DNA from: an uncultured Gammaproteobacteria bacterium
GTDB taxonomy: Bacteria > Pseudomonadota > Gammaproteobacteria > Eutrophobiales > Eutrophobiaceae
NCBI GenBank assembly: GCA_951812995.1
Contig: CATOTD010000002.1
Coordinates: 67,468-131,467, forward strand
Reading direction: 5' to 3'
Length of the DNA: 64,000 nucleotides
Positions 23,773-60,415 of the stretch are shown here, piece by piece. Numbering within the stretch: position 1 is the first letter of the stretch; each line of letters begins with the position of its first letter. Below the pieces are notes generated by a model that made no database searches, was not told where the DNA came from, and was given only the letters and a program-made list of their open reading frames with translations. The position numbers and the translations under genes were made by a program.

Positions 23773-24066
23773 TAGTACTCCTTATACTCATAACGCTTAG
23801 CATCCAGCGGTCCATCGAAGACCCGCGGAGCGGGCTTTGGGCGATCCGACTGCATACGCTTGTTATAAGCCATTCTGCAACTTAGTTGTGCGAGAATCTA
23901 AAATAATCGCTATGCACCCGTTGAATCAAATTAATTGGGAATTATATACTTTACTCCAACTTCACTACAAAATACAAACACAATGATTTGTTAGTTTTTT
24001 CAAGTAACAAGCTCACCATGCTCACCTGTTACCTTATGCAATTTTTCAATTGCACTCCATTTTGGG

Positions 24067-24369
24067 TTAAACCATCTTTTCTTGTCTTTCGTTTGCACGC
24101 AACGACAATAAAAAGGTTTTTATCGGTTTTTTATCTTTGTTGAATACTGCAATATCAAGCGGATACTCTTTTTTGGTATCAGATGGCCTTACTTTTACAC
24201 GCCACTGTGGTCGTGTTTGTAATTGTTCTTTGGGGTATCCGTAATCTTCGACAAGTGTTTCGGAAAAGACTTGTACTGCTTCTACTTCTTCTGGCGTAGC
24301 TTTTACTTCTTCACCACTTATATAGTCTTTGATGTAACCTTCTCTCATTATCGTCCTGTATATCCGCAT
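24067..24369 (-). CDS. IS-borne passenger ORF, ~100 aa, resembling the N-terminal part of HsdR-N / PD-(D/E)xK nuclease-type proteins
   Basis: Conserved in both IS1595 copies between the transposase and the right IR, differing only by an in-frame 6-nt indel (PEEVEAVQ vs PAEAVQ). The GYPKEQLQTRP..YPLDIAVFNKDKKPIKTFLL segment is reminiscent of the HsdR N-terminal domain; similarity not verified. Confidence 0.5.
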   Translation of the reverse strand: MRIYRTIMREGYIKDYISGEEVKATPEEVEAVQVFSETLVEDYGYPKEQLQTRPQWRVKVRPSDTKKEYPLDIAVFNKDKKPIKTFLLSLRANERQEKMV

Positions 24370-24388
24370 TCTATTTCCATTGCTTTGC

Positions 24389-25312
24389 TCATGCTAGCAC
24401 CTCGCGATAGGTAATCCGTTTACCTATCGCGTTGCTTATAAGTGATTCTATACGTTGATTGGTTGGTAACTTACATGGTCCGTTATTCAGTCTAAAAGTC
24501 ACTTCGTTCACATAGCGATGTAAGTGTTTAGTGCTGGCATGAGGCCATACCCCATACAGACCGCGTTTGAGTAAAGCCCAGACACTTTCAATGCTATTGG
24601 TATGAATGTTGTTTGAACCCACATATTCTCCCGCACTATGGGTTACCGTACCATGCTGATAAGCAGACTGTAAATGCTGATATGACCTGTGTTCATCTGT
24701 GTAAATGGTGGCACCATATTCCACTGAACAGCCAATCTCTTTGTGTAGGGTCGGTATATCAGTTGATGGGATAGGCTTAGCCCTTGTGCGGCCACCGCGC
24801 TCACGCATTCCGACCACTACCTGCTTGCCAGCTACGCCACGGCCTGCGCGGGCTTTCTTGTGTTTGTTATGTTCCTTCCCACCGATATAGGTCTCATCAA
24901 TCTCAACAATGCCAGAAAGTAAATTATCTGTATTATCGTTACAGGTTTCACGAATGCGGGCCTGCATAAACCAGGCGGTCTTTTGAGTTACTCCGATTTG
25001 TTTAGATAACTGCAAGCTAGATATGCCCTTGCGCGAGGTGACAGTTAAGTAAATAGCATACAGCCATTTATGTAGTGGTACATGAGAACGTTCAAAGATA
25101 GTGCCGGTTCTCACTGTAAACTCACTCTTGCAGTCCCGGCATAAGTAATATCCTGTCCGCTTTCCTTTGCGCGGGGTAATACGCTTAAATCCCCCACAAT
25201 GAGGACAGGATATGTAATCTCCCCAGCGTTGTCCCTCAAAATACAATCTAGCGGCTTCAGCATCCGGAAACTGGCGAAATAACTCAAATGTGGATATGGT
25301 ATTGTCTTTCAT
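24389..25312 (-). CDS. IS1595-family transposase (N-terminal zinc-ribbon plus DDE domain)
   Basis: 307 aa with CPHCGG..C..C zinc ribbon, KWLYAIYL and DETYIGG motifs typical of IS1595/ISXO2-like transposases. About 99% identical to the copy at 31607..32536. Confidence 0.85.
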   Translation of the reverse strand: MKDNTISTFELFRQFPDAEAARLYFEGQRWGDYISCPHCGGFKRITPRKGKRTGYYLCRDCKSEFTVRTGTIFERSHVPLHKWLYAIYLTVTSRKGISSLQLSKQIGVTQKTAWFMQARIRETCNDNTDNLLSGIVEIDETYIGGKEHNKHKKARAGRGVAGKQVVVGMRERGGRTRAKPIPSTDIPTLHKEIGCSVEYGATIYTDEHRSYQHLQSAYQHGTVTHSAGEYVGSNNIHTNSIESVWALLKRGLYGVWPHASTKHLHRYVNEVTFRLNNGPCKLPTNQRIESLISNAIGKRITYREVLA

Positions 25313-25397
25313 TGATGACCCTCCGTTTTATTGCATTTTTATGTTAGATTATATGGGTTATTTATTGGAGTCAAGTATATAATTCCCAATTAATTCC

Positions 25398-30432: not shown

Positions 30433-31561
30433 GGTTATGACTATTGTTGGAACTCGACCCGAGCTTATCAAGATGAGCCGTGTTATAGTAGAGTTTGATC
30501 GCCAAACTGAACATGTTCTTGTGCATACTGGCCAAAATTATGACTATGAATTGAATCAAATATTTTTTGATGAAATGAATATTCGAAAACCAAATTATTT
30601 TCTGGATGTTGCCAGTGAAAATGCCGCAAAAACCATAGGTCAGGTTATTATTAGTTCCGATGAAATATTACGTAGGGAAAAGCCAGATGCTGTTTTGCTT
30701 TATGGTGATACAAATTCTTGCCTTGCGGTTATTTCTGCAAAACGACTTAAAATTCCTATATTTCATTTTGAAGCCGGCAATCGTTGTTTTAATCAATGTG
30801 TTCCAGAAGAATTAAATCGTAAGATTGTTGATCATTTAAGTGATATAAATCTCGTTTTAAGTGAACACGCCAGGCGTTGTTTGATTGCAGAAGGCATCCC
30901 TGCGGACAGAATAATTAAGACGGGTTCTCATATGCAAGAAGTGTTGGAATATTATCTTCCAGAAATAGAAAAATCAGAGGTGTTGCAACATAATAAGCTA
31001 AAACAAAACGAATATTTCGTTGTGAGCGCACATCGGGAGGAGAATGTTGATTCTCCAGAAAATCTTGTTGAGCTCTTAAACACACTTAATATATTAGCCA
31101 GAACGTATAAGTTTCCAATAATCGTATCGACTCATCCGCGAACACAAAAACGGTTAAATAAAATTGATGATATAGGAGTAAATAGTCTGATTAGATTTAT
31201 CAAACCTTTTGGTTTTGTAGATTATATAAAATTACAGATTGATTCGTACTGTGTGATCTCAGATAGTGGGACTATTATGGAAGAAGCGGCATTATTGAAC
31301 TTTCCTGCAATCACTATTCGAGATGAACATGAAAGACCAGAAGGTTTTGATTCAGGAACACTGGTTATGACTGGTTTAAAGCAAGAACGGGTACAAGATG
31401 GTATAAAGATAATTAAGAGTCAGCGAAAAGAACTCGAAAAAAATATAGGGGTGGTGACTGATTATGAAGCGGGGTCCGTATCAAAAAAAGCAGTCAGGAT
31501 TGTTTTAAGCTATATTGATTACGTAAATAAAGGGAATTATATACTTGAATCCAATAAATAA
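30422..31561 (+). CDS. fnlC: non-hydrolysing UDP-sugar 2-epimerase (CapG/FnlC/WbjD family); C-terminal 6 codons rewritten by IS1595 insertion
   Basis: TIVGTRPELIKM..., HTGQNYDYELNQIFF, FHFEAGNRCF, TGSHMQEVL signatures of UDP-GlcNAc 2-epimerase-like enzymes. The last residues (GNYILESNK) are encoded by the IS1595 left IR. Confidence 0.8.
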   Translation: MMLKVMTIVGTRPELIKMSRVIVEFDRQTEHVLVHTGQNYDYELNQIFFDEMNIRKPNYFLDVASENAAKTIGQVIISSDEILRREKPDAVLLYGDTNSCLAVISAKRLKIPIFHFEAGNRCFNQCVPEELNRKIVDHLSDINLVLSEHARRCLIAEGIPADRIIKTGSHMQEVLEYYLPEIEKSEVLQHNKLKQNEYFVVSAHREENVDSPENLVELLNTLNILARTYKFPIIVSTHPRTQKRLNKIDDIGVNSLIRFIKPFGFVDYIKLQIDSYCVISDSGTIMEEAALLNFPAITIRDEHERPEGFDSGTLVMTGLKQERVQDGIKIIKSQRKELEKNIGVVTDYEAGSVSKKAVRIVLSYIDYVNKGNYILESNK

Positions 31562-31606
31562 CCCATATAATCTAACATAAAAATGCAATAAAACGGAGGG
31601 GTATCA

Positions 31607-32536
31607 ATGAAAGACAATACCATATCCACATTTGAGTTATTTCGCCAGTTTCCGGATGCTGAAGCCGCTAGATTGTATTTTGAGGGACAACGCTGGGGAG
31701 ATTACATATCCTGTCCTCATTGTGGGGAATTTAAGCGTATTACCCCGCGCAAAGGAAAGCGGACAGGATATTACTTATGCCGGGACTGCAAGAGTGAGTT
31801 TACGGTGAGAACCGGCACTATCTTTGAACGTTCTCATGTACCACTACATAAATGGCTATATGCTATTTACTTAACTGTCACCTCGCGCAAGGGCATATCT
31901 AGCTTGCAGTTATCTAAACAAATCGGAGTAACTCAAAAGACCGCCTGGTTTATGCAGGCCCGCATTCGTGAATCCTGTAACGATAATACAGATAATTTAC
32001 TTTCTGGCATTGTTGAGATTGATGAGACCTATATCGGTGGGAAGGAACATAACAAACACAAACACAAGAAAGCCCGCGCAGGCCGTGGCGTAGCTGGCAA
32101 GCAGGTAGTGGTCGGAATGCGTGAGCGCGGTGGCCGCACAAGGGCTAAGCCTATCCCATCAACTGATATACCGACCCTGCACAAAGAGATTGGCTGTTCA
32201 GTGGAATATGGTGCCACCATTTACACAGATGAACACAGGTCATATCAGCATTTACAGTCTGCTTATCAGCATGGTACGGTAACCCATAGTGCGGGAGAAT
32301 ATGTGGGTTCAAACAACATTCATACCAATAGCATTGAAAGTGTCTGGGCTTTACTCAAACGCGGTCTGTATGGGGTATGGCCTCATGCCAGCACTAAACA
32401 CTTACATCGCTATGTGAACGAAGTGACTTTTAGACTGAATAACGGACCATGTAAGTTACCAACCAATCAACGTATAGAATCACTTATAAGCAACGCGATA
32501 GGTAAACGGATTACCTATCGCGAGGTGCTAGCATGA
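31607..32536 (+). CDS. IS1595-family transposase
   Basis: 309 aa, identical to the copy 1 transposase apart from a few substitutions and an in-frame KH insertion (EHNKHKHKKARAG vs EHNKHKKARAG). Confidence 0.85.
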   Translation: MKDNTISTFELFRQFPDAEAARLYFEGQRWGDYISCPHCGEFKRITPRKGKRTGYYLCRDCKSEFTVRTGTIFERSHVPLHKWLYAIYLTVTSRKGISSLQLSKQIGVTQKTAWFMQARIRESCNDNTDNLLSGIVEIDETYIGGKEHNKHKHKKARAGRGVAGKQVVVGMRERGGRTRAKPIPSTDIPTLHKEIGCSVEYGATIYTDEHRSYQHLQSAYQHGTVTHSAGEYVGSNNIHTNSIESVWALLKRGLYGVWPHASTKHLHRYVNEVTFRLNNGPCKLPTNQRIESLISNAIGKRITYREVLA

Positions 32537-32555
32537 GCAAAGCAATGGAAATAGA

Positions 32556-32852
32556 ATGCGGATATACAGGACGATAATGAGAGCAGGTTACATCAAAGAC
32601 TATATAAGTGGTGAAGAAGTAAAAGCTACGCCAGCAGAAGCAGTACAAGTCTTTTCCGAAACACTTGTCGAAGATTACGGATACCCCAAAGAACAATTAC
32701 AAACACGACCACAGTGGCGTGTAAAAGTAAGGCCATCTGATACCAAAAAAGAGTATCCGCTTGATATTGCAGTATTCAACAAAGATAAAAAACCGATAAA
32801 AACCTTTTTATTGTCGTTGCGTGCAAACGAAAGACAAGAAAAGATGGTTTAA
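32556..32852 (+). CDS. IS-borne passenger ORF (HsdR-N-like), second copy
   Basis: 98 aa, paralogue of 24067..24369 with an in-frame 2-aa indel. Confidence 0.5.
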   Translation: MRIYRTIMRAGYIKDYISGEEVKATPAEAVQVFSETLVEDYGYPKEQLQTRPQWRVKVRPSDTKKEYPLDIAVFNKDKKPIKTFLLSLRANERQEKMV

Positions 32853-33027
32853 CCCAAAATGGAGTGCAATTGAAAAATTGCATAAGGTAACAGGTGAGCA
32901 TGGTGAGCTTGTTACTTGAAAAAACTAACAAATCATTGTGTTTGTATTTTGTAGTGAAGTTGGAGTAAAGTATATAATTCCATAAATAAAAATGTTTGGC
33001 ACTCTCCATAATTTTTTATAATAAATT

Positions 33028-41999: not shown

Positions 42000-42605
42000 T
42001 CAACCCGCAAGCCAAATAGTATCAGTGGCTGACGGGTTATACCTGTCCTGTAGTTCGCCGTTTGGGATGCAAGCTATAATGATGCGGTTTAGTTTTTGTG
42101 AACTACCCACTACTTCATAGACATACTTGGCAATCATGGTAACCACATACATCCTACGCTCGCCCCGTTCAATGAAGCGGTCCAACTTGCCGACTTCAGC
42201 TAAAGACTCTCCTGCACGATGCATCTTCACGGTCATTGATGTTTGCGACATTTGAATGGTTGCTGTTCTGTTGCCATTGCGTTTTTCAGCTTTTGCGTCC
42301 AGCATCAGCGCAACAGGCACAGGATTGGGGAGAAAGGCGTATATTGCCTTCTTGTAATCAACTTTTCCGTATAGGCGCTCGGCAATAGCAGATACCCCCA
42401 TGGTTTCAAGTGCCTCTCTGGTTACGTCCTCAGCGATATCTTGAGGGAGATCGGTCTCCTCTCGAAAGATGGTAACAGCTTGGTCGTAGTAATCAGTGAT
42501 GGCTTGCACCACTACCCCCATGACAGCCTGTTCAAGATGTTCCAATTCCTCAGGCAGCATCGGTACGAAGTCTCGCCATGGCCGTATATTTTGGGTCTGA
42601 ATCAA
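42000..42605 (-). CDS. hypothetical protein, candidate cognate restriction endonuclease (by position only)
   Basis: 201-aa ORF overlapping the methyltransferase stop by ~55 nt on the same strand (classic coupled M-R layout). No confident nuclease motif seen; LDAKAEK is only a weak PD-(D/E)xK candidate. Confidence 0.3.
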   Translation of the reverse strand: MIQTQNIRPWRDFVPMLPEELEHLEQAVMGVVVQAITDYYDQAVTIFREETDLPQDIAEDVTREALETMGVSAIAERLYGKVDYKKAIYAFLPNPVPVALMLDAKAEKRNGNRTATIQMSQTSMTVKMHRAGESLAEVGKLDRFIERGERRMYVVTMIAKYVYEVVGSSQKLNRIIIACIPNGELQDRYNPSATDTIWLAG

Positions 42606-43581
42606 TGCCGTACCATTGTCGATTCAGCTTCTTGGCCACTGCCGTAGTGGTGCCGCTACCAACAAACGGGTCAATAACGACACCTCCTTCGGGTGAGAAT
42701 AAACGTATTACTCTAGAGGCTAATTCTTCAGGAAACTCTGCTTCGTGCCGATTGTTCCGCGCCACTGACCTTATCTGCCAAATACCACGTGATCCCCAGC
42801 TAGACCATTCGTGATCATCTATCCGAGCACGATCATAAGTTACGATGCCAGGCCGATGGAGTACATAAATGTGCTCAAATTCATCCACAGATCGATAACT
42901 GTTAGAATGCCACCTGCTATTCATCCAGCAGGGGTCTTTATGCCAGATGCGCTGATCATACAAATATAATCCAGCCGCTTCCCCCCATTCCACCACCATG
43001 CATCCAGTCAACAATAGCTTGGTTTGGGTTTGTCGTTTCCCGCCCCGTACATTATTGTGCTCCAGCCGCCTCTGAACGGTTTGTTCGCTACAGCCGAGAA
43101 CAGCACCTATCTCTTTCCTGTTGTAGTCTGGGTATACGGTCATGGTCTCCAGGATTTGTTTGCGCGTCACAGGATTTTTTTTGTGCCTCATGTTGTCAGC
43201 CCGGAAACGCGGAATGCTTTTATCTGGGAAACAAAGAATATCTCCAATGTTAATCGCAAGGAATCCGCCAGGTTTGATGATTCTGGCATGACCAGCTATG
43301 ACTGCACACACCATATCTTGCCACTCTTCAAATGTTAAATTGCGCTCATACGACTTGCCAACGTAGTAAGGCGGCGACCAGAAGCTCAAATCAACGGAAC
43401 TGTCAGGAATCTGGGGTAAAACGTCTCTCGCGTCCCCGGTGACAATTCGATTAAACGGGAGGTTAGCTTTCGCTTTCCTAGACCCTTGCACCTCTTCATG
43501 CTGGCGGGAAAGCCCCTGATTATTGGACCTGTTTCTGGTCTTGATGCCTTGTATTGGCGGTGTCTGAACTCCGCCAATCAC
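42550..43581 (-). CDS. beta-class DNA methyltransferase (SPPY motif, probably N4-cytosine or N6-adenine) with an HTH-like insert
   Basis: Motif IV DLSFWSPPYY near the N-terminus and motif I VIDPFVGSGTT near the C-terminus (beta-class order). The central segment RKQILETMTVYPDYNRKEIGAVLGCSEQTVQRRLE resembles a helix-turn-helix. Confidence 0.75.
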   Translation of the reverse strand: MIGGVQTPPIQGIKTRNRSNNQGLSRQHEEVQGSRKAKANLPFNRIVTGDARDVLPQIPDSSVDLSFWSPPYYVGKSYERNLTFEEWQDMVCAVIAGHARIIKPGGFLAINIGDILCFPDKSIPRFRADNMRHKKNPVTRKQILETMTVYPDYNRKEIGAVLGCSEQTVQRRLEHNNVRGGKRQTQTKLLLTGCMVVEWGEAAGLYLYDQRIWHKDPCWMNSRWHSNSYRSVDEFEHIYVLHRPGIVTYDRARIDDHEWSSWGSRGIWQIRSVARNNRHEAEFPEELASRVIRLFSPEGGVVIDPFVGSGTTTAVAKKLNRQWYGIDSDPKYTAMARLRTDAA

Positions 43582-43853
43582 GACCGCGCACCACTTGATA
43601 GTCCGTTGTCGGTAATCAATTCGCGGTAGCGAAGTTGCTTTCCCCCCATCCCAATAACGATACAGGCCATCTGATCCGTCGTGTCAGCATCACGGTTGTT
43701 CTGCCTTTCGGCAAACTCATTGACATAACGGTCAAGGTGCTTCTCACTCGTTTTGTGGTAGGTACCGTAATACCAACGCTTGAGCATCGCCCAGAAGCTC
43801 TCAATTTCCAGATATTTTTGATACTGCTTATCGCTAATCGGTTTGTCAATCAT
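43578..43853 (-). pseudogene. C-terminal fragment of an IS1595-family transposase
   Basis: ..ESFWAMLKRWYYGTYHKTSEKHLDRYVNEFAERQNNRD.. matches the conserved IS1595 C-terminus (cf. SVWALLKRGLYGVWPHASTKHLHRYVNEVTFRLNN); no upstream remainder. Confidence 0.65.
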
Positions 43854-44882: not shown

Positions 44883-45014
44883 CTATCATATAACCAGCGT
44901 TTACTCATTATTAAGCAGTAATACATTATATGACACATAAAAAATCAATCTGTTTTAAATATATTTGTGGCGTTAAGTATATAATTCCCAAGTATAGGGA
45001 TCCCCTACCTGGAC

Positions 45015-47745: not shown

Positions 47746-48657
47746 TTAGCCGCGTGGATGATGTTCGGCATGTAAATCCTTGAGACGTTCTCTTGCAACA
47801 TGCGTATATATTTGCGTGGTAGAAATATCACTATGCCCCAACAGCATCTGCACGACTCTTAAATCAGCACCATGATTGAGCAGATGGGTGGCAAAGGCGT
47901 GGCGCAATACATGGGGCGATAATGTTTTTTTAATATCCGCGACGGCCGCATAGCGTTTGACGATATGCCAAAAAGTTTGGCGCGTCATCGCCGTGCGCCG
48001 ATTACTCGGGAACAGCGCATCGGTTAAGGTATGATTCAGAATCTCGTTGCGGGCTGATGCAAGATAGCGTTCAAGCCACACGCCAGCCTCTTCACCCATT
48101 GGCACCAAACGCTCTTTATTGCCTTTACCGGTCACTCTCAGGACACCTTGACGCAGATTCACCTGCTGCATTGTTAAGGCAACAAGTTCCGAGACGCGCA
48201 AACCAGTCGCATACAGTAATTCCAGCATCGTTCTATCCCTTACCCCGGCTACTTGTGCGGTATCTGGCGCGTTGAGCAGTGCTTCAACTTCAGATTCAGT
48301 CAGGGTCTTTGGCAGTGTGCGTCCAAGCCTTGGTGCATCGACATGGCTAACTGGATTTTGTTTGATGTGATCCTCGCGCAGTAGGTATTCATACAGCCGC
48401 CGCAAGCTGGATAATCGTCGTGCCACTGTTCGTGCCGAGCTATGCTTTGCAGCCGCGAGATAAGCCAGCACATCTTTCGGCTCGGCGCTGGCCAATGTCA
48501 CATGCTGTTGTTGTAGCCAACATGAAAAATGGGTCAAGTCGCTACGATAGGCGGCCAGCGTGTTATTGCTCAAGCCGCGCTCCATCCATAAAGCATCAAG
48601 GAATGCGTCTATAATGCGCCTCGATTCGGGCGCACTGTTTGTGTGTTGTTCGGTCAA
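47746..48657 (-). CDS. xerC: tyrosine recombinase XerC (apparent TTG start)
   Basis: 303 aa with the catalytic R..HxxR..Y tail (HVLRHAFATHLLNHGADLRVVQMLLGHSDISTTQIYTHV). The first codon in frame is TTG; the 5' end lies inside a ~185-bp direct repeat. Confidence 0.85.
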   Translation of the reverse strand: MTEQHTNSAPESRRIIDAFLDALWMERGLSNNTLAAYRSDLTHFSCWLQQQHVTLASAEPKDVLAYLAAAKHSSARTVARRLSSLRRLYEYLLREDHIKQNPVSHVDAPRLGRTLPKTLTESEVEALLNAPDTAQVAGVRDRTMLELLYATGLRVSELVALTMQQVNLRQGVLRVTGKGNKERLVPMGEEAGVWLERYLASARNEILNHTLTDALFPSNRRTAMTRQTFWHIVKRYAAVADIKKTLSPHVLRHAFATHLLNHGADLRVVQMLLGHSDISTTQIYTHVARERLKDLHAEHHPRG

Positions 48658-48751
48658 TTACGTCATGCCTAAACGATTCATGGATACAGCCGCGGTCGGC
48701 AGCTTAGATGCGCATGTTGCAGGTGTTGATGGCACCGCCACGTTAATAAGG
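48569..48751. repeat. left copy of a ~185-bp direct repeat (xerC 5' end plus upstream) bracketing the EcoRV-like R-M insertion; right copy at 50663..50850
   Basis: Near-identical sequence (CAAGCCGCGCTCCATCCATAAAGCATCAAGGAATGCGTC...GATGGCACCGCC) at both positions. The right copy contains a duplicated 5' fragment of xerC (first ~30 codons). Confidence 0.85.
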
Positions 48752-48875
48752 GAATTATATACTTAAGAATAAGCATATTATATACAATTACTTATCCAGT
48801 CATAAATTATGAATATCAGAAAAACAGCAGATACAATTTCATCAATATACGCCTTAAATATCAGGAGAAAATACA

Positions 48876-49631
48876 ATGAAAAAAGAGTTTGAAGCGCATC
48901 TCAAACAATTTGTCGCAGGACTCAAAGCACATATAAGCACAGAAAACAAACAGTGGACGATCAAGGGATTTATTGATGTATTCCAAAACATTTATACGAT
49001 TTCTGCAGACACCAAAATCATCTCTAAAATTTTAGAAATTCATTTATTTCCGAAAATCATGGAGTTTGCGCAAACTTGTGGCTACAAAATCGTGCTTGCC
49101 GAACACCAAAACTACTACCCCGATATATCATTTATAAAGACTGATGATGAGGATGTTAAATTTGCACTGGATCTAAAAACAACTTATAGAAACCCAAGAA
49201 AACCATTTTTATGCAACGGCTTTACATTAGGCTCCCACGGAAAATACTTTACAGACCGAACCAGCAAGAAAAACATACAATTTCCTTACGGCGAATATGC
49301 AGGTCATTTTTGCCTTGGGATTATCTATGACCGAGGGTCTAAGGTCGCTACAAAAGAAACAATCAATTACAATATAAACGAGCTGCGCTCAATTGTATCT
49401 GTCATTAGTAATTTTCAGTTTTTTGTGGCAGAAAAATGGAAGATTGCAGGCGATAAAAGTGGCAGTGGTAATACAGCCAATATCGGTAGCATCAACAACA
49501 TTGCCGACATCGTAAGTAACAACGGGATGTTTGCAAAACTAGGTGAGTCGTGGTTTGATGACTACTGGATGAATTTAATAAAATTACCGCTTCTGATGGC
49601 AAAGGCGGCACCAAGAAAATCACATCTTTAA
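48876..49631 (+). CDS. type II restriction endonuclease, EcoRV-like
   Basis: 251 aa, alignable by recall to R.EcoRV (QNYYPDISF vs QNHYPDF, LDLKTTY vs IDIKTTY, YNINEL, KWKIAGDKSGSGNTANIGSI vs KWVIAGDLAGSGNTTNIGSI, DDYWMN vs DYWRN). Low GC. Confidence 0.75.
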   Translation: MKKEFEAHLKQFVAGLKAHISTENKQWTIKGFIDVFQNIYTISADTKIISKILEIHLFPKIMEFAQTCGYKIVLAEHQNYYPDISFIKTDDEDVKFALDLKTTYRNPRKPFLCNGFTLGSHGKYFTDRTSKKNIQFPYGEYAGHFCLGIIYDRGSKVATKETINYNINELRSIVSVISNFQFFVAEKWKIAGDKSGSGNTANIGSINNIADIVSNNGMFAKLGESWFDDYWMNLIKLPLLMAKAAPRKSHL

Positions 49632-49709
49632 GCGATTTTGTGAAATATAGAAAAGGAGATAAATCGTTAATAGTGCCAAAAAGAAATAGTCCGCCGTAAC
49701 CACAAACCA

Positions 49710-50627
49710 ATGAAACTACAGGCTCCACCAATCAAATCACAAGGCATAAAAACCAAGTTAGTGCCTTGGATAAAAACGGTTGTACCCAATCAATTAACCG
49801 GGAAATGGATAGAGCCTTTTATGGGAACAGGGGCAGTAGCCTTTAATATTGCTCCTCATCATGCTTTGTTATGCGATATTAACCCCCATTTAATCAATTT
49901 CTATCAAGCCGTTGCCGAACAAGACATTACCCCATCTGGCGTCAGAGAATATTTAAGTAGTGAAGGTGCTAATCTATTGAAAAGAGGTGAAGCGCATTAC
50001 TACCACGTAAGAGAAAGATTCAATAAAAAATTTAATCCTTTGGATTTTCTGTTTCTAAATAGAGCGGGGTTTAACGGAATGATACGCTTCAATAGAAAAG
50101 GCCATTTTAATACGCCATTTTGTAAAAAACCGCAAAGGTTCTCTCCAGCTTACATAACCAAAATTGTCAATCAAGTTGCTTATGTGAGCCACTTGCTGGC
50201 CACAAAAAAATTCAAATTCAAATGTCAATCATTCAAGGATACAATAACCCGTGCTAATACAGATGATGTGATTTACTGTGATCCTCCCTATATAGACAGA
50301 CATGCCGATTATTTTAATGGCTGGGATGTTGAGCAGGAAAAAAGTCTTTTTAATGTTTTGGCGAAAACAAATAGCCAGTTTATTTTATCAACATGGCATC
50401 ACAATCAATACCGGGAAAATAAGTACATAAAGAGTCTATGGGGTCAGTTTAATATGCTTACAAGAGAGCATTTTTACCATATCGGTGCAAGCGAAAAAAA
50501 CAGAAACCTGATGATAGAAGCCATTGTAACAAATTGCGAAATACAACACGGTAATAACGAAACAAACGAAACGGACGAAATGAACGAAACGTTGAAACAG
50601 CAAGAACAAACCAGCTTGCTAATATAA
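49710..50627 (+). CDS. N6-adenine DNA methyltransferase, M.EcoRV-like (Dam/D12 class)
   Basis: 305 aa closely matching M.EcoRV by recall ([77 protein letters not shown]). Confidence 0.85.
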
Positions 50628-50662
50628 CAACACCCAAGATAGCAAATCACTCAAGCATTACG

Positions 50663-50850
50663 AACAAGCCGCGCTCCATCCATAAAGCATCAAGGAATGC
50701 GTCGATAATGCGCCTCGATTCGGGCGCACTGTTTGTGTGTTGTTCGGTCAATTACGTCATGCCTAAACGATTCATGGATACAGCCGCGGTCGGTAGCTTA
50801 GATGCGCATGTTGCAAGTGTTGATGGCACCGCCGTGGTTATTTAATAAGG
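50663..50850. repeat. right copy of the ~185-bp direct repeat, carrying a xerC 5' pseudo-fragment
   Basis: See 48569..48751. The minus strand encodes LTEQHTNSAPESRRIIDAFLDALWMERGL and then diverges. Confidence 0.85.
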
Positions 50851-50907
50851 CCCGTGCTTGCTTTTACGGCAAGCTACGGGAGCGGCCAGATGAGGCCATT
50901 GTCCCAT

Positions 50908-51264
50908 TTATTGCTTTGTCTTGATTTTTTCTTTGATGCGTGCCGCCTTGCCGCGCAGATTGCGCATGTAATAGAGTTTGGCGCGTCTGACATCACCACG
51001 GCGTTTGACCTGAATATCCGCAACGGTGTTGCTGTATGTTTGGAAGACGCGCTCTACACCTTCATCATAAGCAATCTTGCGCACGGTGAATGATGAATTC
51101 AGACCGCGGTTTTTAATCGCAATCACAACGCCTTCAAAGGCCTGTAGACGTTCGCGTTGTCCTTCTTTTACTTTGACTTGCACAACAACGGTATCGCCTG
51201 GCGCAAACGCGGGAATATCGCGGGTCATTTGTTCAGCTTCAAGTTGTTCGATTATATTTGCCAT
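50908..51264 (-). CDS. rplS: 50S ribosomal protein L19
   Basis: [13 protein letters not shown]...[13 protein letters not shown]; last gene of the rpsP-rimM-trmD-rplS operon. Confidence 0.9.
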
Positions 51265-51275
51265 TTTCATAACTC

Positions 51276-53390: not shown

Positions 53391-53478
53391 CTGGCCAAAG
53401 AACTAAAGAAACTGAACCCAAAGAAACTGAACCCAAAGAAACTGAACCCAAAGAAACTGAACCCAAAGAAACTGGGCA
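53391..53478 (+). repeat. about 4.7 tandem copies of a 15-bp unit AAAGAAACTGAACCC ending 2 nt before the start codon of the giant surface protein gene
   Basis: Directly visible; preceded by a degenerate copy (CCAAAGAACTAAAG) and by a TTGACA hexamer at 53327. Confidence 0.85.
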
Positions 53479-53480
53479 AT

Positions 53481-56400
53481 ATGCAACGTGCCAACACCGC
53501 AATCATTACGTCATTCCAAGCCGTTATTGTCTTTTTTCTATGGCTGGTTGCAAGCCCGTCGCTGTTTGCGCAAGTCGCACCCGGGGTGACGGTCTCCGAG
53601 GCGAGGCTCACGGTTGCCGAAAATGGCGGCACGACTGAGTTCACGATACGGCTCTCCAGCCCACCCACCGAGCCTATCTTGGTTATCGCTCAGCCATTGG
53701 CTAACAATTCTGGTGTCACCGCCAATGTGATCGGCGGGACCCTAATCAACGACCTTAACTGGAACATCCCCAAGACGATCAGGATCACGGGGGTTGATGA
53801 TGATATCGCCAATCCCGACCCGCGCCGCACGGCACGTGTCCAGATACTCCTTAGAGATCAGGATGGCGGTAGCATTGGTAGCCGTAGTAGCTATCACAAC
53901 CTCAGTACTACCCTGGACATCACGGTCATCGATGATGATGTCGCCCCCGATGCCCCAAGCAATCTTACCGCTATCCCCGACAATGCCAAGGTACACCTGA
54001 ATTGGGTAGCCCCGACTACGGGCGGGGCGGTTGCCAGGTATGAGTATTCAACGGATGGCGGCACCACCTGGATCAGTACCGGCACGAATACCCGCGTTAC
54101 CGTAACTGGCTTGGCCAACGACAACCTAGTCAGCTTTACCGTGCGCGCGGCCAATGCCGCAGGCAACAGCGCGGCCAGCACTGCAGTACCCGCCACGCCG
54201 ACAGCAGGCGCAAGACCCCCCGATGCCCCAACAAACCTGGCCGCTGTCCCGCGCCAAACTCAGGAGGTAAACCTGACCTGGGATGCCCCGGCCAACAATG
54301 GCGGTTCAGCGATTACCGACTATGCGTATTCAACGGATGACGGCACGACTTGGACTCTCACCGATAGCACCAATACCAACTTTGTCGTACTCAACTTGAT
54401 CGACTATAACCTATACACCTTTATCGTGCGCGCGGTCAATGCCCAAGGTGCCAGTGTGGCCAGCGCGCCAGCGTCAGCCACGCCGGTGCCAAGCGGAATC
54501 ACGGTGATGCGTCCTCGCGTGTTTGTAGTTCCCGAAAATGGCCGCACCCCGGTCAGTTTCACGTTAAGGCTCAACACGCAACCTGGCGGCGATGTTACTA
54601 TTCGCATCACACCACCTAGCATTGATGGAACGGCCATCGCCACCCTCTCTGGAAGTGGGACAGCGGCGGCAAACGGGGTCAGGACGCTGACCTTTACGCC
54701 TGATAACTGGAACACCGCCCAGACAGTCACAGTCACGGGTGTGAATGACGCAATCGACAACCCGGGCGATGGGCGCACCGCAAGTTTAATCACACAGGTT
54801 CAAAACTATGGGCGCAACATTAGAATAGATCCTCCCATCAGTGTCACGGTCACCGATGATGATGCCGCACCCGATGCCCCGACCGGTCTTGGTGCCGCCA
54901 CCGCCGGTGATGGCGAGATAGTCTTAAGCTGGACCGCTCCGGTCAATACTGGCACCGTCGATGCCGTCGCCGCGGCGATGAGCGGCTATGAGTATCGGCA
55001 ACAGGCCGCTGGGGTATGGAGTGATTGGAACACGATACATGACAGTGCCCCCGGGGGTGCCAATGCGGCGAGTTATACCGTACCTAACTTGGTCAATGGC
55101 ACGGCCTATACCTTTGCGGTACGGGCGGTTAGTGCCGCCGGTAAGGGTGCGGCCAGTAATCAAGAATCAGCTACACCGCAAGCCAGGGTCGTTGCTAATG
55201 CCCCAACGGTGAGTATTGCCACAATAGACGACCATGGGGGTAGGACAGCCCGGAATGTTGAGGTTACAGTTATTTTTGATGTGGCTGTGAATGGTTTTAT
55301 CGCAAGCGATGTGCGCGTGACGGGGGGAACGGTAGAAAGATTTAACGGCGCTGATGGCGGCACGAGATACAACTTTTTTATTGCGCCAGCGGGCACGGAT
55401 GCGATTACGCTGCTTGTGCCTGCAGGTGTTGCTCAAGGTGTTGTAGGCGGCATCGGCAATGTCCAGAGCCAGCAAGTGACAATACCCTATATTGGCCCGC
55501 CTTCTGCGCCTAGAGACATTCAGGCAACGCCTGGTAATGCCCAAGTCATTTTACGTTGGAATTCCCCGGCCAATATCGGTGGTCGACCGATTACCCGCTA
55601 TGAGTATCGGCAAGATGACGGTGCTGGTTTTGGTGCTTGGCAGGCCATTGCTGACAGTGCCCCCGGGGGTGCCAATGATGACAGCTTTACCGTGACCACC
55701 GGATTGACCAACGGAACTCGATATACTTTTCAGGTGCGTGCGGTCAATGGTGCGGGTGATGGTGCGGCCAGTGTCTCGGTATCAAAAACACCGACCGACG
55801 CTGATGTCGCTCCCCCAACGGTAATGATCACCACCAATGCGGGTGGTAGCCATGATGGCAGTACGGCCTTTACTGCGACCTTTACCTTTAGTGAAGACCT
55901 AGACCCAACCGACCCCTTTGCGATAGGCGATATCCGCTTAGCGGAAGCGACCGCCAGTAAATTCGTAGCAACAACGATCAACCGCGTCTACACCGCCACC
56001 ATCACGCCGGATGTGGGTACGACTGCGGCCATAACGATAGATGTTAATGCTAATGTTGTCCAAGACTTGGCGAGTAACAATAATGAGGCGGCGGCACAAG
56101 TGAGTGTGCCTTATGTTGCGGTCACGGTAACCGATGATGATGTTGCGACGGCAGAGCGTGAGCGGATTGATCAGGTGAACAATGATATTGCCCCGCGGCT
56201 GGCGCAAGCGATGCTGGCAAGTCCATTGTCGGCGATTACCAGTCGTATCGTGTCGGTGACCTCGGGTGTGTCATCGGCGGTTAACCTGACTGATGCGTCC
56301 AATGTTGCGCAGGTATTGAAGTCTAACGAGCGGTCGCTGGAACAGGGTACGTTTGATCCGAAGGTGTTGCTGGACGGCCGTACGTTTGTATTGCCGTTGC

Positions 56401-57602
56401 AGGCGTTTGGTGGCGGTGCTCGGGATGCGGATGGTATGGGTGGTTTGGCACTTTGGGGCAGTGGTGATTATACCGATCTCAAGGGCAACCCAGACCAGCG
56501 ATTGCAATGGGATGGCAATATGACGACGGCGCATCTCGGTGCGGATATGTGGTTGAGCCAGAATATATTGGCGGGTCTGTCAGTCGCGTGGTCGCGCGGT
56601 TCGTTTGACTATACCGACCGGTCGGCTACAGTAGCAGGTAGCAGTGCTGCGGTAGATGGTCCCATAGACGGCAACTATGAGAGTGAGATGTTGAGCGTGC
56701 ATCCGTATGTGAATTTTGCTTTGACCAAGGACTTTGAGGCGTGGGCGACCGTGGGTTACGGTTGGGGTGATGTGGAGATTGGCGACAATCTGATGACGGC
56801 ACCGCAGTCAAGTGATACGACGTTGACGATGGCGGCAGTCGGTGCGAGCGGTCAGTTGTTGTCGGTGGATGATCTGATCGTGGGCGGCACGACGATCCTG
56901 AAGCTGAAGGCCGAGGGTGCGTTATCGCAACTTGATATTGATGGTAATGGTGCGCGTATCAACCCGTTGACTGCGGATATACAGCGGTTGCGTTTGTTGT
57001 TGGAGGGCAGTCACGTACACACACTGGACTCAGGTAAGACGTTGACCCCGGCGTTGGAGGTGGGTGTGCGTCATGACAGTGGTGACGGGGTGCAGGGCAT
57101 TGGTTATGAGCTGGGCGGCAGTATACGCTTTTTGAATCCGGCTAGCGGTGTGACGATGGATATACATGGTCGGGTGTTGCTTGCGCATGAGGATGATTAT
57201 GAGGAATGGGGTGTGGGTGGTTTGATGCGGTTTGACTCGGGTCGGCGTGGTCGCGGTTTGTCGCTTAGTGTGGCACCGGTGTATGGTGAGGCGACGAGCG
57301 GGGTCGCGCAGTTGTGGGATCAGGGTGTGAGCCGTGCGACCATGGCGGCCGTGGACAATACGCCACGTTTGCGTTTGGACAGTGAGATTGGGTATGGTTA
57401 TGATGTGTTTGGTGGACGGGCGTTGTTGACACCTTACAGTGGTTTCTCGTTGGTGGGTGAGGGCGCGCAGCGTTATCGGCTTGGCACACGTCTTGAGATT
57501 GGGTCTGTGTTCAAGTTGAGTTTTGAGGGTGCGCGTCGTGAGGCATCGGGTGATGCGGCGGCCGATCATGGTGCCATGTTGCGGCTTGATTGGGCGTTGT
57601 AA
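53481..57602 (+). CDS. giant secreted adhesin-like protein: signal peptide, Calx-beta/fn3 repeat passenger, autotransporter-like C-terminal beta-domain
   Basis: 1373 aa. Signal peptide MQRANTAIITSFQAVIVFFLWLVASPSLFAQ. Repeated fn3-type segments (PDAPSNLTAIPDNAKVHLNWVAP...YEYSTDGGTTW). The C-terminal ~450 aa (..ALWGSGDYTDLKGN...GADMWLSQNILAGLSVAWSRGSFDY...MLRLDWAL) resemble an autotransporter barrel. Confidence 0.6.
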   Translation: MQRANTAIITSFQAVIVFFLWLVASPSLFAQVAPGVTVSEARLTVAENGGTTEFTIRLSSPPTEPILVIAQPLANNSGVTANVIGGTLINDLNWNIPKTIRITGVDDDIANPDPRRTARVQILLRDQDGGSIGSRSSYHNLSTTLDITVIDDDVAPDAPSNLTAIPDNAKVHLNWVAPTTGGAVARYEYSTDGGTTWISTGTNTRVTVTGLANDNLVSFTVRAANAAGNSAASTAVPATPTAGARPPDAPTNLAAVPRQTQEVNLTWDAPANNGGSAITDYAYSTDDGTTWTLTDSTNTNFVVLNLIDYNLYTFIVRAVNAQGASVASAPASATPVPSGITVMRPRVFVVPENGRTPVSFTLRLNTQPGGDVTIRITPPSIDGTAIATLSGSGTAAANGVRTLTFTPDNWNTAQTVTVTGVNDAIDNPGDGRTASLITQVQNYGRNIRIDPPISVTVTDDDAAPDAPTGLGAATAGDGEIVLSWTAPVNTGTVDAVAAAMSGYEYRQQAAGVWSDWNTIHDSAPGGANAASYTVPNLVNGTAYTFAVRAVSAAGKGAASNQESATPQARVVANAPTVSIATIDDHGGRTARNVEVTVIFDVAVNGFIASDVRVTGGTVERFNGADGGTRYNFFIAPAGTDAITLLVPAGVAQGVVGGIGNVQSQQVTIPYIGPPSAPRDIQATPGNAQVILRWNSPANIGGRPITRYEYRQDDGAGFGAWQAIADSAPGGANDDSFTVTTGLTNGTRYTFQVRAVNGAGDGAASVSVSKTPTDADVAPPTVMITTNAGGSHDGSTAFTATFTFSEDLDPTDPFAIGDIRLAEATASKFVATTINRVYTATITPDVGTTAAITIDVNANVVQDLASNNNEAAAQVSVPYVAVTVTDDDVATAERERIDQVNNDIAPRLAQAMLASPLSAITSRIVSVTSGVSSAVNLTDASNVAQVLKSNERSLEQGTFDPKVLLDGRTFVLPLQAFGGGARDADGMGGLALWGSGDYTDLKGNPDQRLQWDGNMTTAHLGADMWLSQNILAGLSVAWSRGSFDYTDRSATVAGSSAAVDGPIDGNYESEMLSVHPYVNFALTKDFEAWATVGYGWGDVEIGDNLMTAPQSSDTTLTMAAVGASGQLLSVDDLIVGGTTILKLKAEGALSQLDIDGNGARINPLTADIQRLRLLLEGSHVHTLDSGKTLTPALEVGVRHDSGDGVQGIGYELGGSIRFLNPASGVTMDIHGRVLLAHEDDYEEWGVGGLMRFDSGRRGRGLSLSVAPVYGEATSGVAQLWDQGVSRATMAAVDNTPRLRLDSEIGYGYDVFGGRALLTPYSGFSLVGEGAQRYRLGTRLEIGSVFKLSFEGARREASGDAAADHGAMLRLDWAL

Positions 57603-58024
57603 CGGGTAAAAAAGGCCTGTAAAAGACACCCGATGCTAACGCCGAGAATGTGTGCTTTATCAACCTGGAACGGCAAGAAAGATGAAATCTAGCTATTTTT
57701 TCCGCGTCAGCTACAGATGATGTTAGATAACCCCATGCGTGGCACTGCTTTATATCGTGCCTTGGTTCATGCGGACGCACCCGAAGACGAAGCCAAAGAG
57801 GCCGCCGATGGTTGAGGATAAATTTAATAATATTGATAGTCGTTTAACACGACTAAAAACGATGTCGAAAGTTACGATTGCATTGTTAATAGCGATATTG
57901 ATTAAATCATTTTTTTAGTATGGCGGCGGCACACTGCCCTTGAAACCTTGTTTAATGAGCGTTTAATAAGGGAATGATATACTTCAATAAGAGCCTTTCC
58001 CAAAAACTGTGTAACTGCCGTTGG

Positions 58025-58363
58025 TTAAACGAGGTCCTTTAGTCGGTCTTCGAATTCGATCATAAAGCGATTCATCGCTGGTTTCCAATATTTAATCGAC
58101 ATAGTCCACTGCTTTGATGCATCTTGAATCGCCAGATAGATCACCTTTCTGGTAGCGTTGTTGGTTGGAAACAACTTACGTTTTTTGATAGCTTTCCTGA
58201 TGACGCTGTTGAACGATGCAATGGCGTTGGTGGTATAGATTGCCTTGCGCAAGTCCTGCGGGTAATCAAACAGGGTGTTGAGGTTCTGCCAATGACTCTG
58301 CCAGGAACGGCTGGTCTTAGGGTATTTGGCATCCCATTCGTCACCAAAGACATCAAGCACCAA
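58025..58363 (-). pseudogene. C-terminal fragment of an IS256-family transposase (a further lineage)
   Basis: ..WQNLNTLFDYPQDLRKAIYTTNAIASFNSVIRKAIKKRKLFPTNNATRKVIYLAIQDASKQWTMSIKYW is the conserved IS256 C-terminus; the N-terminal part is missing (IS256 lineage 3 copy abuts at 58436). Confidence 0.7.
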
Positions 58364-58435
58364 CAGTGCTTCCGCCTCCGTAGTTGACTGGTAGATTTGC
58401 TACAAGTCGACTACAACCGCCTTGTAGCTCAGAGT

Positions 58436-59045
58436 TACAACCGAACCTGGTGTCTGAAGAGGTTGAAGTATGCGGCGTGCCTTGCTGGAATCGGTTTTGT
58501 CTAGCAATCAAAAGTAACAAGAGGAGTACGCCACACATGACAAACAATACTGTGATTGATCTGGGTACACCAGAGGGAATTGATCCACTGACAGAGTTAC
58601 TCAGATCTGGTGCGAGGCAGTTAATCACCGAAGCTGTCCAGGTAGAGCCAGATGAGTTGATGAGGCAGTATGATGATCAAAAAACGGCTGACGTACGCCA
58701 GCACGTTGTCCGTAGCGGTCATCATCCAGAACGAGAGATCATCATCGGGGTTGGCAAGGTCAGCGTTGAGGTGCCCAATATCCGTAGCCGTGAGGGTGAG
58801 TCGGCGAGCTTTCAATCTTTGCTTGTACCGCCCTACATCCGGCGCACAGCGACCCTGGATGCGGCGATTCCCTGGCTTTATTTGAAGGGTGTTTCGAGTG
58901 GTCAGATGCAAAGTGCACTGGAAGCGATTGTCGGATTGGAGGCTAAAGGGCTGTCGGCCAATGTCGTGGGTCGTTTGAAACGGCAATGGGAAGCTGCATA
59001 CAAGCAATGGTGTACACGTTCCGTGTCTGATGAATGGGTCTATAT
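58436..59045 (+). mobile_element. IS256-family lineage 3 copy, interrupted after ..DEWVY by insertion of IS256 lineage 1 copy C
   Basis: End sequence shared with 39433 and 62147. Transposase from 58537 (MTNNTVIDLGTPEG..) reads to ..RSVSDEWVY, then runs into the GATAACATA.. IR of the other element. Confidence 0.7.
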
Positions 59046-60415
59046 GATAACATACATTATCTTTCGCAAATATGAAGAGGCGGTTTTCCTTTATCTGGTT
59101 AAATAAAAAGTGACATAACCATTTATTTGACCAGGAGAAGAGTCGCCATGAGCGATGATACAAGCAAGCACTTGAACAATGTAGTCCCTATTGATGAACA
59201 GGAACTGCAGGGCCATCTCAACAAAGTGGTACTGAAGACTGTGGAAGACACCCGCAACCAGATTCTGGACGCTGAGGCTGATGCGCTGGTGGGTGCTGAT
59301 CGATATGCACGCACTGAGACGCGCAAAGACGACCGGTCTGGTAGTTACACCAGGAAGCGCCACACAAAGGGCCGGAGAGCTTGAGTTAAAGATGCAGAAG
59401 CTACGCAAGCAGACCTTTGAGATGGCCATCATAGAGCGCTATCGGTGCCGTGTAGCATCTGTCGAAGAGGCACTGATTGAGATGTATCTGGCTGGCGTAT
59501 CGGTCTTACGGGTGGAGGATGTCACCGCAGTCCTCTGGGGTACCCGTGTTAGCTCAGGGACTATTTCAAAGCTCAACCAGCGTATCTATGGGCAGATTGA
59601 AGAGTGGCGTAATCGCCCCATAGGGAGTGATTTCCCTTATGTATACCTGGACGGTGTTGTGCTCAAACGCAGTTGGGGCGGTGCAGTGAAGAACGTTTCT
59701 GTTCTGGTCGCCATCGGTGTTGGGGACGATGACTACCGCCGCATTCCAGGGATTGTTGAAGGGACTAAGGGGGATAAGGCGGGCTGGTCAGGATGCCTGC
59801 GTCATTTGCAGGCACGCGGTCTCAAGGGCATCAGGTTGGTGCTCAGTGATGCCTGTCTTGGGCGCCAGGAGTCAATAGGTGACTTCTACCCGAAGCTGGC
59901 TGGCAGCGTTGTATTGTGCACTGCTACCGCAACGTCTTCAGTCATGTGTCTCGTGGTCGTGTCAAAGAAGTCTCTCGCATGTTGCAGGCTATCCATGCAT
60001 CTGAATATATGGAATCAGTCAGGCATAAGGCCACGGAGGTTGAGAAGAAGCTCAGGGACATGAAGTTATCGAGTGCAGCGGATTGGCTGGACCAGTGCAT
60101 GGCAGAGACCCTGACGTATTATCGGTTTCTGGCAGAGCACTGGATTTGCATTCGGACTAACAATCCTTTGGAGCGGATCATTCGAGAAATCAGGCGGCGA
60201 ACTTGAGTAGTGGGAGCATTCCCGGATGGCAACTCGGCGTTGATGCTTTGTGCGGCAAGGCTTAGACACATCGCGGGGAGCTAGTGGGGAACGCGGACAT
60301 ATCTGAACATGGATTTGCTCCAAGAGATGGATAAAGAAAAGGATTTTCAGGTAGCGTAACAACCAGATTTAAGGGAAAGCCAAATCAGAAAGTGCGAAAG
60401 ATTATTGACACTACC
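59046..60415 (+). mobile_element. IS256-family lineage 1 copy C: full-length ends, transposase pseudogene with the same 1-nt deletion and in-frame TGA as copy A
   Basis: Left IR GATAACATACATTATCTTTCGCAAAT, right IR ..GAAAGTGCGAAAGATTATTGACACTACC. ORFs 59127..59384, 59281..60063 and 59916..60206, with TGA between ..IRRRT and VVGAFPDG. Confidence 0.8.

Follow-up and report, generated by a model that had tools for sequence, protein, structure and literature searches.

An EcoRV-type restriction-modification unit between long direct repeats at the rplS-xerD junction of an uncultured gammaproteobacterium

The locus described here lies in a 64,000-nt stretch of DNA (hereafter the window) from an uncultured Gammaproteobacteria bacterium (GenBank assembly GCA_951812995.1, contig CATOTD010000002.1). 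Between 48.5 and 50.9 kb, two plus-strand open reading frames (ORFs) are found, at 48876-49631 (251 aa) and 49710-50627 (305 aa), which together make up an EcoRV-type restriction-modification (R-M) unit, with an endonuclease gene (R) followed by a methyltransferase gene (M). On the minus strand, the pair is flanked by a tyrosine recombinase gene, identified below as xerD, on one side, and by rplS, then trmD, rimM and rpsP, on the other. The unit sits in a low-GC insert between two near-identical copies of a segment spanning the start of xerD, and relatives possess the same junction with a single copy of xerD and no R-M genes. Very likely, a foreign EcoRV-type R-M unit has entered the rplS-xerD junction and left a long duplication of its target. 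The features of the locus are the following, with positions counted along the window:

47746-48657, minus strand: xerD, functional copy, 303 codons from a TTG start (ancestral ATG at 48664-48666, in-frame TAA at 48658-48660)
48571-48751, no strand: left copy of the probable target duplication, 181 nt, with xerD codons 1-29 from the TTG and 94 nt of upstream region
48750-48764, plus strand: solo IS1595-family terminal inverted repeat, 15-mer GGGAATTATATACTT, exactly at the left insert junction, its first two bases (GG) overlapping the repeat end
48876-49631, plus strand: EcoRV-family restriction endonuclease ORF, 251 aa, the last 18 codons out of frame after a 1-nt deletion at 49575/49576
49571-49699, plus strand, other frame: displaced 3' part of the R gene, in which the conserved C-terminal subdomain is still encoded
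49710-50627, plus strand: Dam-class (D12) N6-adenine methyltransferase, intact, with FMGTG and DPPY motifs, 62% identical to M.EcoRV
50556-50591, plus strand: 9-nt tandem repeat in four copies, AACGAAACG, translated as NET-like repeats in the 3' tail of M
50647-50760, minus strand: xerD 5' pseudo-fragment, reading ATG ACG TAA TTG, 29 xerD codons, five further codons and a stop inside the insert
50665-50850, no strand: right copy of the probable target duplication, 186 nt, contiguous with the rplS terminator region
50853-50882, minus strand: terminator-like hairpin 3' of rplS (RNA fold -26.1 kcal/mol, z -2.7); the duplication stops 2 nt from its base
50908-51270, minus strand: rplS, closing the rpsP-rimM-trmD-rplS operon; ancestrally the next gene upstream of xerD

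The insert, its flanking repeats and the empty site

A repeat finder located a direct-repeat core of 169 nt, at 48571-48739 and 50665-50833, with 98% identity, and alignment carries the repeats on to 48751 and 50850, yielding copies of 181 and 186 nt that differ by five substitutions and one 5-nt indel. A repeat of this kind goes well past anything that chance would give. Four of the five substitutions, together with the indel, fall within the 50 nt nearest the 48751/50850 end. Repeat finder and alignment place between the two copies an insert of 1,913 bp (48752-50664), whose GC content of 0.32-0.41 is foreign to that of the flanks (~0.47-0.55); the edges of this low-GC block are exactly the repeat boundaries. 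The duplicated stretch extends from the base of the rplS hairpin to codon 29 of xerD (codon 32 when counted from the ancestral ATG), and one complete xerD therefore survives. Since the duplication starts 2 nt beyond the hairpin, the functional gene also keeps its whole upstream region, and a dead xerD 5' fragment is left beside rplS. Convergently oriented DNA of 2.1 kb would shut the surviving gene off from read-through out of rplS, and leave it to depend on the retained 94-nt upstream region. A sigma-70 promoter scan gave fewer matches than shuffled sequence, with nothing usable for xerD or R. Both repeat copies also contain, on the plus strand, a hairpin followed by a T-rich run (48615-48634 and 50709-50728); the one at 50709 could end M transcription ahead of rplS, or may be fortuitous, being antisense to xerD coding sequence.

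An earlier, sequence-only reading of this DNA had described near-identical direct repeats of ~185 bp around a low-GC R-M unit, with a 5' pseudo-fragment of the recombinase gene in the right-hand copy. Both observations hold, as alignment gives 181 and 186 nt, the GC trough is seen, and the fragment runs into a stop inside the insert. That reading had named the target gene xerC, and here it has to be corrected. The recombinase scores 394 bits against the NCBIfam XerD model TIGR02225 (cutoff 329.6), and 316 bits against that of XerC (cutoff 335), which places it above the XerD cutoff and below the XerC one, and its nearest relatives are annotated XerD. The same reading reported that the first codon of the gene is now TTG; a TTG indeed stands there, but the insertion is not its cause. 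XerD relatives are 306 aa long and start with MNQ or MKQ, while the window has M T * L T E Q, and the sequence ATG ACG TAA TTG is found in both repeat copies (48658-48666 and 50752-50760) at the position where three relatives have ATG-xxx-CAA. Because the codon-3 TAA is common to both copies, the TTG start is not due to the insertion, and the nonsense codon and TTG restart either are older than the duplication or were homogenised between the copies. Translation of xerD presumably restarts at the TTG next to the TAA; the source's gene call starts at Leu29, giving 275 aa. The XerD sequence is otherwise intact.

I next consider the junction in other genomes. In the nearest relatives retrieved (L081 and L082, with XerD 83% and 82% identical to that of the window, respectively), 160 nt separate rplS from xerD, and R-M genes are absent; the full gene order is rpsP-rimM-trmD-rplS, spacer, xerD and a convergent pilus ATPase gene, with a single xerD 5' end. 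Rebuilding the empty site of the window, from the right repeat and the rest of xerD, gives a spacer of 147 nt. More broadly, rplS lies upstream of xerD in 74 of 80 gammaproteobacterial species-representative genomes, and R or M is present there in none of the 80. The empty rplS-recombinase spacer that the earlier reading had suggested looking for in related genomes is thus found, free of R-M genes, and its proposal of an R-M insertion with long target duplication agrees both with this site and with the published criteria discussed below. Among loci from Pseudomonas and relatives (L007-L080), the rplS-xerD gap of Pseudomonas varies from ~130 nt to ~5 kb (~130 nt in L017, 2.4 kb in L007 and 5 kb in L067), and genes may have been gained repeatedly at this junction.

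The endonuclease and methyltransferase genes

The R ORF matches the Pfam family Endonuc-EcoRV (PF09233) with an E-value of 6.9e-110, and the EcoRV crystal-structure chains in PDB with an E-value of 3.5e-39. PADLOC types it REase_II, and it shares 38% identity with the R.EcoRV encoded on plasmid pLG13. The PD...DxK catalytic motif is kept, with YPDISF and LDLK aligned to YPDFTL and IDIK of EcoRV, and the recognition loop GSGNTANIGSI aligns with GSGNTTNIGSI; the roles of these catalytic and recognition-loop residues are established from structural work on EcoRV. Homologs sharing ~70% identity come from Cycloclasticus, Methylobacter, Nitrospira, Anaerolineales and Sulfurovum, a distribution that may be counted in favour of a foreign origin.

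This ORF does not encode a full-length endonuclease with its C-terminal DNA-binding subdomain. R homologs are 275-281 aa long, against 251 aa for the window ORF, and seven homologous R genes read GAATTAYAAY where the window has GAATT-TAAT, indicating that one base is missing between 49575 and 49576. A >90% identical R protein from another assembly (P0241, from ENA) reads WMNYNKITASDG, in frame, across the frameshift point, and because it continues straight through this site, the window allele is either derived or an error. In the alignment with EcoRV, the reading frame breaks at N218, where an engineered C-terminal deletion mutant ends (chain 2ge5, 219 aa). EcoRV without its C-terminal subdomain reportedly binds DNA more weakly, by several orders of magnitude. 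It has also been described that this subdomain has a part in binding, bending and cleavage (review, PMC4081073). As the 1-nt deletion costs the protein this positively charged subdomain, restriction is probably weak or absent. I consider loss of R activity likely, and the R-M unit here is probably not an intact restriction system. P0241 itself is without the codon-233 frameshift yet short, at 262 aa (ending ...FVKYRIRK), and its early end hints at another, distinct change toward the 3' end of the R gene.

The alternative is that R is intact and active, and that the missing base is a sequencing or assembly error. The in-frame reading of P0241 across the deletion site would fit this, as would the rest of R, which has no stops and keeps its catalytic and recognition motifs, and the displaced C-terminal coding sequence, which is still open and conserved. 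However, the base was not lost from a long homopolymer (TAT to T-T), the gene call of the source likewise has a 251-aa product, and P0241, too, is cut short toward its end (262 aa, with homologs at about 274-281). The neighbouring housekeeping genes are intact, and the assembly is therefore not generally indel-prone. An error thus seems unlikely, and the truncation of R is retained as the preferred interpretation.

The M ORF scores 218 bits against TIGR00571, and is 62% identical to M.EcoRV of pLG13 over 274 residues (BLASTP, E-value 1e-134). From the homology of both proteins, GATATC is the most likely target of the pair, and M very probably methylates it. With R impaired and M intact, the unit would be drifting toward an orphan methyltransferase, along the usual path to such enzymes. 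The 64-kb window contains eight GATATC sites, against 14.4 +/- 3.6 expected, a depletion that is not significant. The BLASTP alignment to M.EcoRV stops at M residue 275, and tblastn matches in related loci stop at residues 275-280.

The sequence-only reading had assigned the first ORF to the R.EcoRV-like endonucleases and the second to the M.EcoRV-like, Dam-class methylases. The former is supported by Pfam, the PDB chains and the comparison with pLG13, and the latter by membership of the D12/Dam family and the 62% identity. Its description of an R-M cassette is accurate as to the EcoRV family, but not as to an intact R, since the 1-nt deletion that truncates this gene had gone unnoticed. It had further singled out the R-M tandem as unlike the divergent EcoRV genes of E. 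coli. The difference is real, as M of E. coli pLG13 is divergent from a helix-turn-helix (HTH) regulator gene plus R, but it is no peculiarity of the window: M follows R on the same strand in 73 of the 75 related metagenomic loci, and an annotated Rhodothermus plasmid likewise has R then M, so that this tandem is the norm for the clade. R and M overlap by 4 nt in three related loci inspected. As for a conserved upstream region or common termini among the related R-M units, the only candidate is a short motif before the start codon in some loci, which is absent from the window.

Flanking repeats were also sought around related units, in the 41 EcoRV-like loci whose flanks were long enough. In three of these, the R-M pair lies between tight direct repeats, while control positions in the same loci gave 0 out of 1,790:

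L092: flanking repeat of 48 nt, spanning the stop of a 591-aa gene
L127: flanking repeat of 55 nt, spanning the start of a 459-aa gene
L138: flanking repeat of 131 nt, spanning the stop of a 571-aa gene

As these three have flanking repeats without an end of an insertion sequence (IS), such an end is not required for this kind of insertion, and the recurrence supports a general, sequence-independent insertion process for the EcoRV-like family. Two further loci were left out of the count of long target duplications: the 161-nt repeat of L139 looks like a palindromic genomic repeat around a 4-kb segment, and that of L136 involves a tRNA-Met.

The IS1595-family end and the mechanism of insertion

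The 15-mer GGGAATTATATACTT at the left junction had been recognised earlier as a solo IS1595-type inverted repeat, and it is indeed an exact match to the ends of full elements. Five exact copies are present in the window, and nine matches at up to three mismatches, against 2.0 expected. Two inverted pairs bound IS1595-family elements of 1,451 bp (23937-25387 and 31532-32982), which have the 8-bp target duplications AATTAATT and TAAATAAA and encode a 307-aa transposase (24389-25312 in the first element) with IS1595 DDE and zinc-ribbon domains (PF12762, E-value 1.5e-41). The solo 15-mer at 48750 is preceded by TTAATAA, which is AT-rich like the other targets of this IS, and the junction site TTTAATAA resembles the two other target duplications of the element in the window. 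IS similarity at this junction ends after 15-17 nt, with nothing further beyond chance; no transposase or integrase gene is found inside the insert, and the 15-mer has no match in 162 related loci.

Two other explanations for the structure were considered and rejected. An IS1595-family transposon or composite element with passenger genes does not account for a single 15-nt end, the lack of a transposase gene, and a flanking repeat of 181 bp instead of 8 bp. Site-specific integration, whether by an integrase at a tRNA target or by a Xer-exploiting element at dif, is contradicted by the absence of an integrase gene in the insert, of any tRNA gene in the window, and of a dif-like 28-mer at up to three mismatches; the XerD encoded here is a conserved host protein, with rplS upstream of its gene in relatives. 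A search for Rfam families found none, and no near-identical cassette was found in phage or plasmid collections, where the best plasmid matches are 60-74% identical.

The window is IS-rich, and contains a second type II R-M system on the minus strand (42000-43581), composed of an SfiI-like endonuclease (201 aa, perhaps short at its N-terminus) and a 343-aa N4/N6 methyltransferase. Immediately next to this system are an IS1595 transposase fragment (43578-43853) and a variant element of the IS1595 family that ends at 44989. The two full IS1595-family copies are 98.5% identical to one another, and each has an extra 100-aa ORF (24067-24369) that weakly resembles HSDR_N_2, an N-terminal domain of restriction enzymes. 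A further solo 15-mer, with one mismatch, is located at 57970-57984, likewise after TTTAATAA, and adjoins fragmented transposase-like ORFs (58025-60206). At the left junction, the IS end with its preceding bases is followed, upstream of R, by a degenerate second copy, forming a local direct repeat (48745-48785, AATAAGGGAATTATATAC and AATAAGCATATTATATAC, 23 nt apart) that may reflect coincidence in AT-rich DNA, or else be a nested remnant. Away from these elements, a perfect 15-nt tandem repeat (AAAGAAACTGAACCC, 4.7 copies, 53405-53474) stops just before the annotated start (53481) of a 1,373-aa ORF (53481-57602).

As to how the junctions were formed, I tentatively favour an insertion of the R-M fragment that was initiated by the IS end. 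In such a scheme, a DNA fragment would have arrived with a precise IS1595-family terminus as its left end, and this terminus would have been joined to the AT-rich TTTAATAA by a transposase-type strand transfer. The other end, which is not of IS origin, would have been attached inside xerD, at a distance of 181 nt, by an illegitimate join, and fill-in or replication of the 181-nt stagger could then have produced the long duplication. That the IS1595 terminus at the edge of the duplication records a one-ended, transposase-initiated insertion, whose other end was joined by host repair 181 nt away, is a speculative and rather improbable proposal.

A number of points weigh against the overall interpretation of the locus given here. 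The repeat copies differ by 2.8% and an indel, which is more than a very recent event predicts and would also suit alleles of a donor and a recipient. The empty site is established for gene order and coding sequence, in a closest relative with 83% XerD identity, and alignment with relatives fails for the spacer DNA, which forms the non-coding part of the repeat; because of this, the differences between the copies are not polarised. The insert has no second IS end near 50664 (at up to three mismatches), no transposase gene and no 8-bp duplication, and the insert termini of L092, L127 and L138 have no sequence in common, whether among themselves or with the window, and no IS end. On the side of the genes, the frameshift in R could be an assembly error, and the out-of-frame tail LIKLPLLMAKAAPRKSHL is itself basic and could keep some function. 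Finally, the mechanism of insertion is reconstructed at every step.

One alternative is an IS-independent insertion of the classic long-target-duplication type at a staggered break, in which the 15-mer would be a passenger brought along with the donor DNA, or what is left of a separate IS that had inserted at the AT-rich junction. Insertions that involve no other mobile elements define the published class (PMC2853133), the three other EcoRV-like loci have flanking repeats without an IS end or shared termini, no more than 15-17 nt of IS sequence are left at the junction, and the genome, which is IS-rich, has a further solo 15-mer at 57970. On the other hand, the outer end of the IS repeat lies within 2 nt of the duplication boundary, and the adjoining 8-mer resembles other target sites of the element, a coincidence that is unlikely to have arisen by chance from an unrelated event. 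I regard this explanation as plausible, though slightly less so than the IS-initiated one.

It is also plausible, though less probable, that homology drove the integration, in that a circle or transforming linear DNA already possessing the IS end, R, M and a copy of the xerD-upstream segment recombined in that segment. This could have been of the Campbell type, or homology-facilitated illegitimate recombination in which the far end is joined illegitimately, and both leave the segment duplicated. The differences between the copies are mostly next to the IS-end junction, as expected if the left copy is partly the donor allele and the crossover took place inside the repeat, but a clustering of just five differences is statistically not compelling. 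A type IV pilus assembly ATPase gene adjoins xerD, most insertions of this kind occur in naturally competent species (survey, PMC2853133), and a near-identical R gene is found in a second assembly (P0241). Against this route, it needs an earlier event that linked the cassette to the same chromosomal segment in the donor. A duplicated segment that is ancestral or independent of the R-M genes, or an assembly chimera, is far less probable than any of these, and indeed barely credible: relatives have one xerD 5' region straight after rplS, the repeat boundaries coincide with the edges of the low-GC block, and five differing positions and an indel are unlike a collapsed or duplicated assembly artefact.

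Relation to known R-M insertions and significance

Insertion of R-M units with long duplication of the target was described previously (Nobusato et al. 2000, Gene 259:99; Furuta, Abe and Kobayashi 2010, PMC2853133). The published criteria are that both R and M are in the insert, that the insert is shorter than 20 kb, and that the duplication exceeds 30 bp; it was also noted that the repeats often span a translation start or stop, which leaves the target gene intact (PMC2853133). At the rplS-xerD locus, R and M are both in an insert of 1,913 bp, the duplication is 181/186 bp, and the segment is present in a single copy in relatives. The published class further calls for no other mobile element, and a solo IS1595-family terminal repeat is found at the left junction; because of this repeat, the locus departs from the strict class. 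In its general features, the locus is therefore like that class, as R and M are together in a short, low-GC insert, the repeats are far longer than the target duplication of a transposon, the repeat is single at the empty site of relatives, and it spans a translation start, sparing the target gene. It is unlike it in the IS terminal repeat placed exactly at one junction, in the frameshifted R, and in an empty site derived from relatives at ~83% XerD identity and not from conspecific strains.

The proteins resemble EcoRV of pLG13 in the fold family, catalytic motif and recognition loop of R (38% identity) and in M (62%), with GATATC as a probable shared target. The genes differ from those of pLG13 in that R precedes M on one strand with no regulator gene, and in being chromosomal and not plasmid-borne, and the R homologs of the window clade are ~30 residues longer at the C-terminus than EcoRV.

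IS-linked movement of R-M genes has been shown experimentally (Takahashi et al. 2011, PMC3031569), and the PluTI unit lies between 16-bp repeats whose sequence is also found, without change, within an IS (Khan et al. 2010, PMC2875022). The unit described here is comparable in that R-M genes are joined to IS terminal sequence in an IS-rich genome, where the SfiI-like R-M genes at 42000-43581 also abut IS1595-family remnants. In contrast to these systems, it has a single 15-nt IS end, with no full flanking IS, cointegrate structure or 8-bp IS duplication, and its duplication is 181 bp long.

The significance of the locus is that an R-M pair is seen acting as a mobile unit, with both junctions defined, a target (rplS-xerD) that can be reconstructed, and a gene of essential function spared by the duplication. 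I know of no explanation for the mechanism of R-M insertion with long target duplication, which was described in 2000; a one-ended insertion, if true, would be the first mechanistic handle on it. To the published record, the locus adds an IS end exactly at the junction of a long duplication, similar flanking repeats at independent loci of the same EcoRV-like clade (three of 41), and a unit in apparent decay, with a truncated R and an intact M, which is the expected route to orphan methyltransferases.

The 98%-identical repeats would permit RecA-dependent precise excision, or tandem amplification, of the unit. Both are part of the published model of the R-M life cycle (PMC2853133). As R is impaired, post-segregational killing would no longer guard the unit against loss. 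The locus is a new instance of a known phenomenon, and leaves the current understanding of R-M mobility unchanged, but it would be a convenient one in which to study excision, amplification and the involvement of IS elements.

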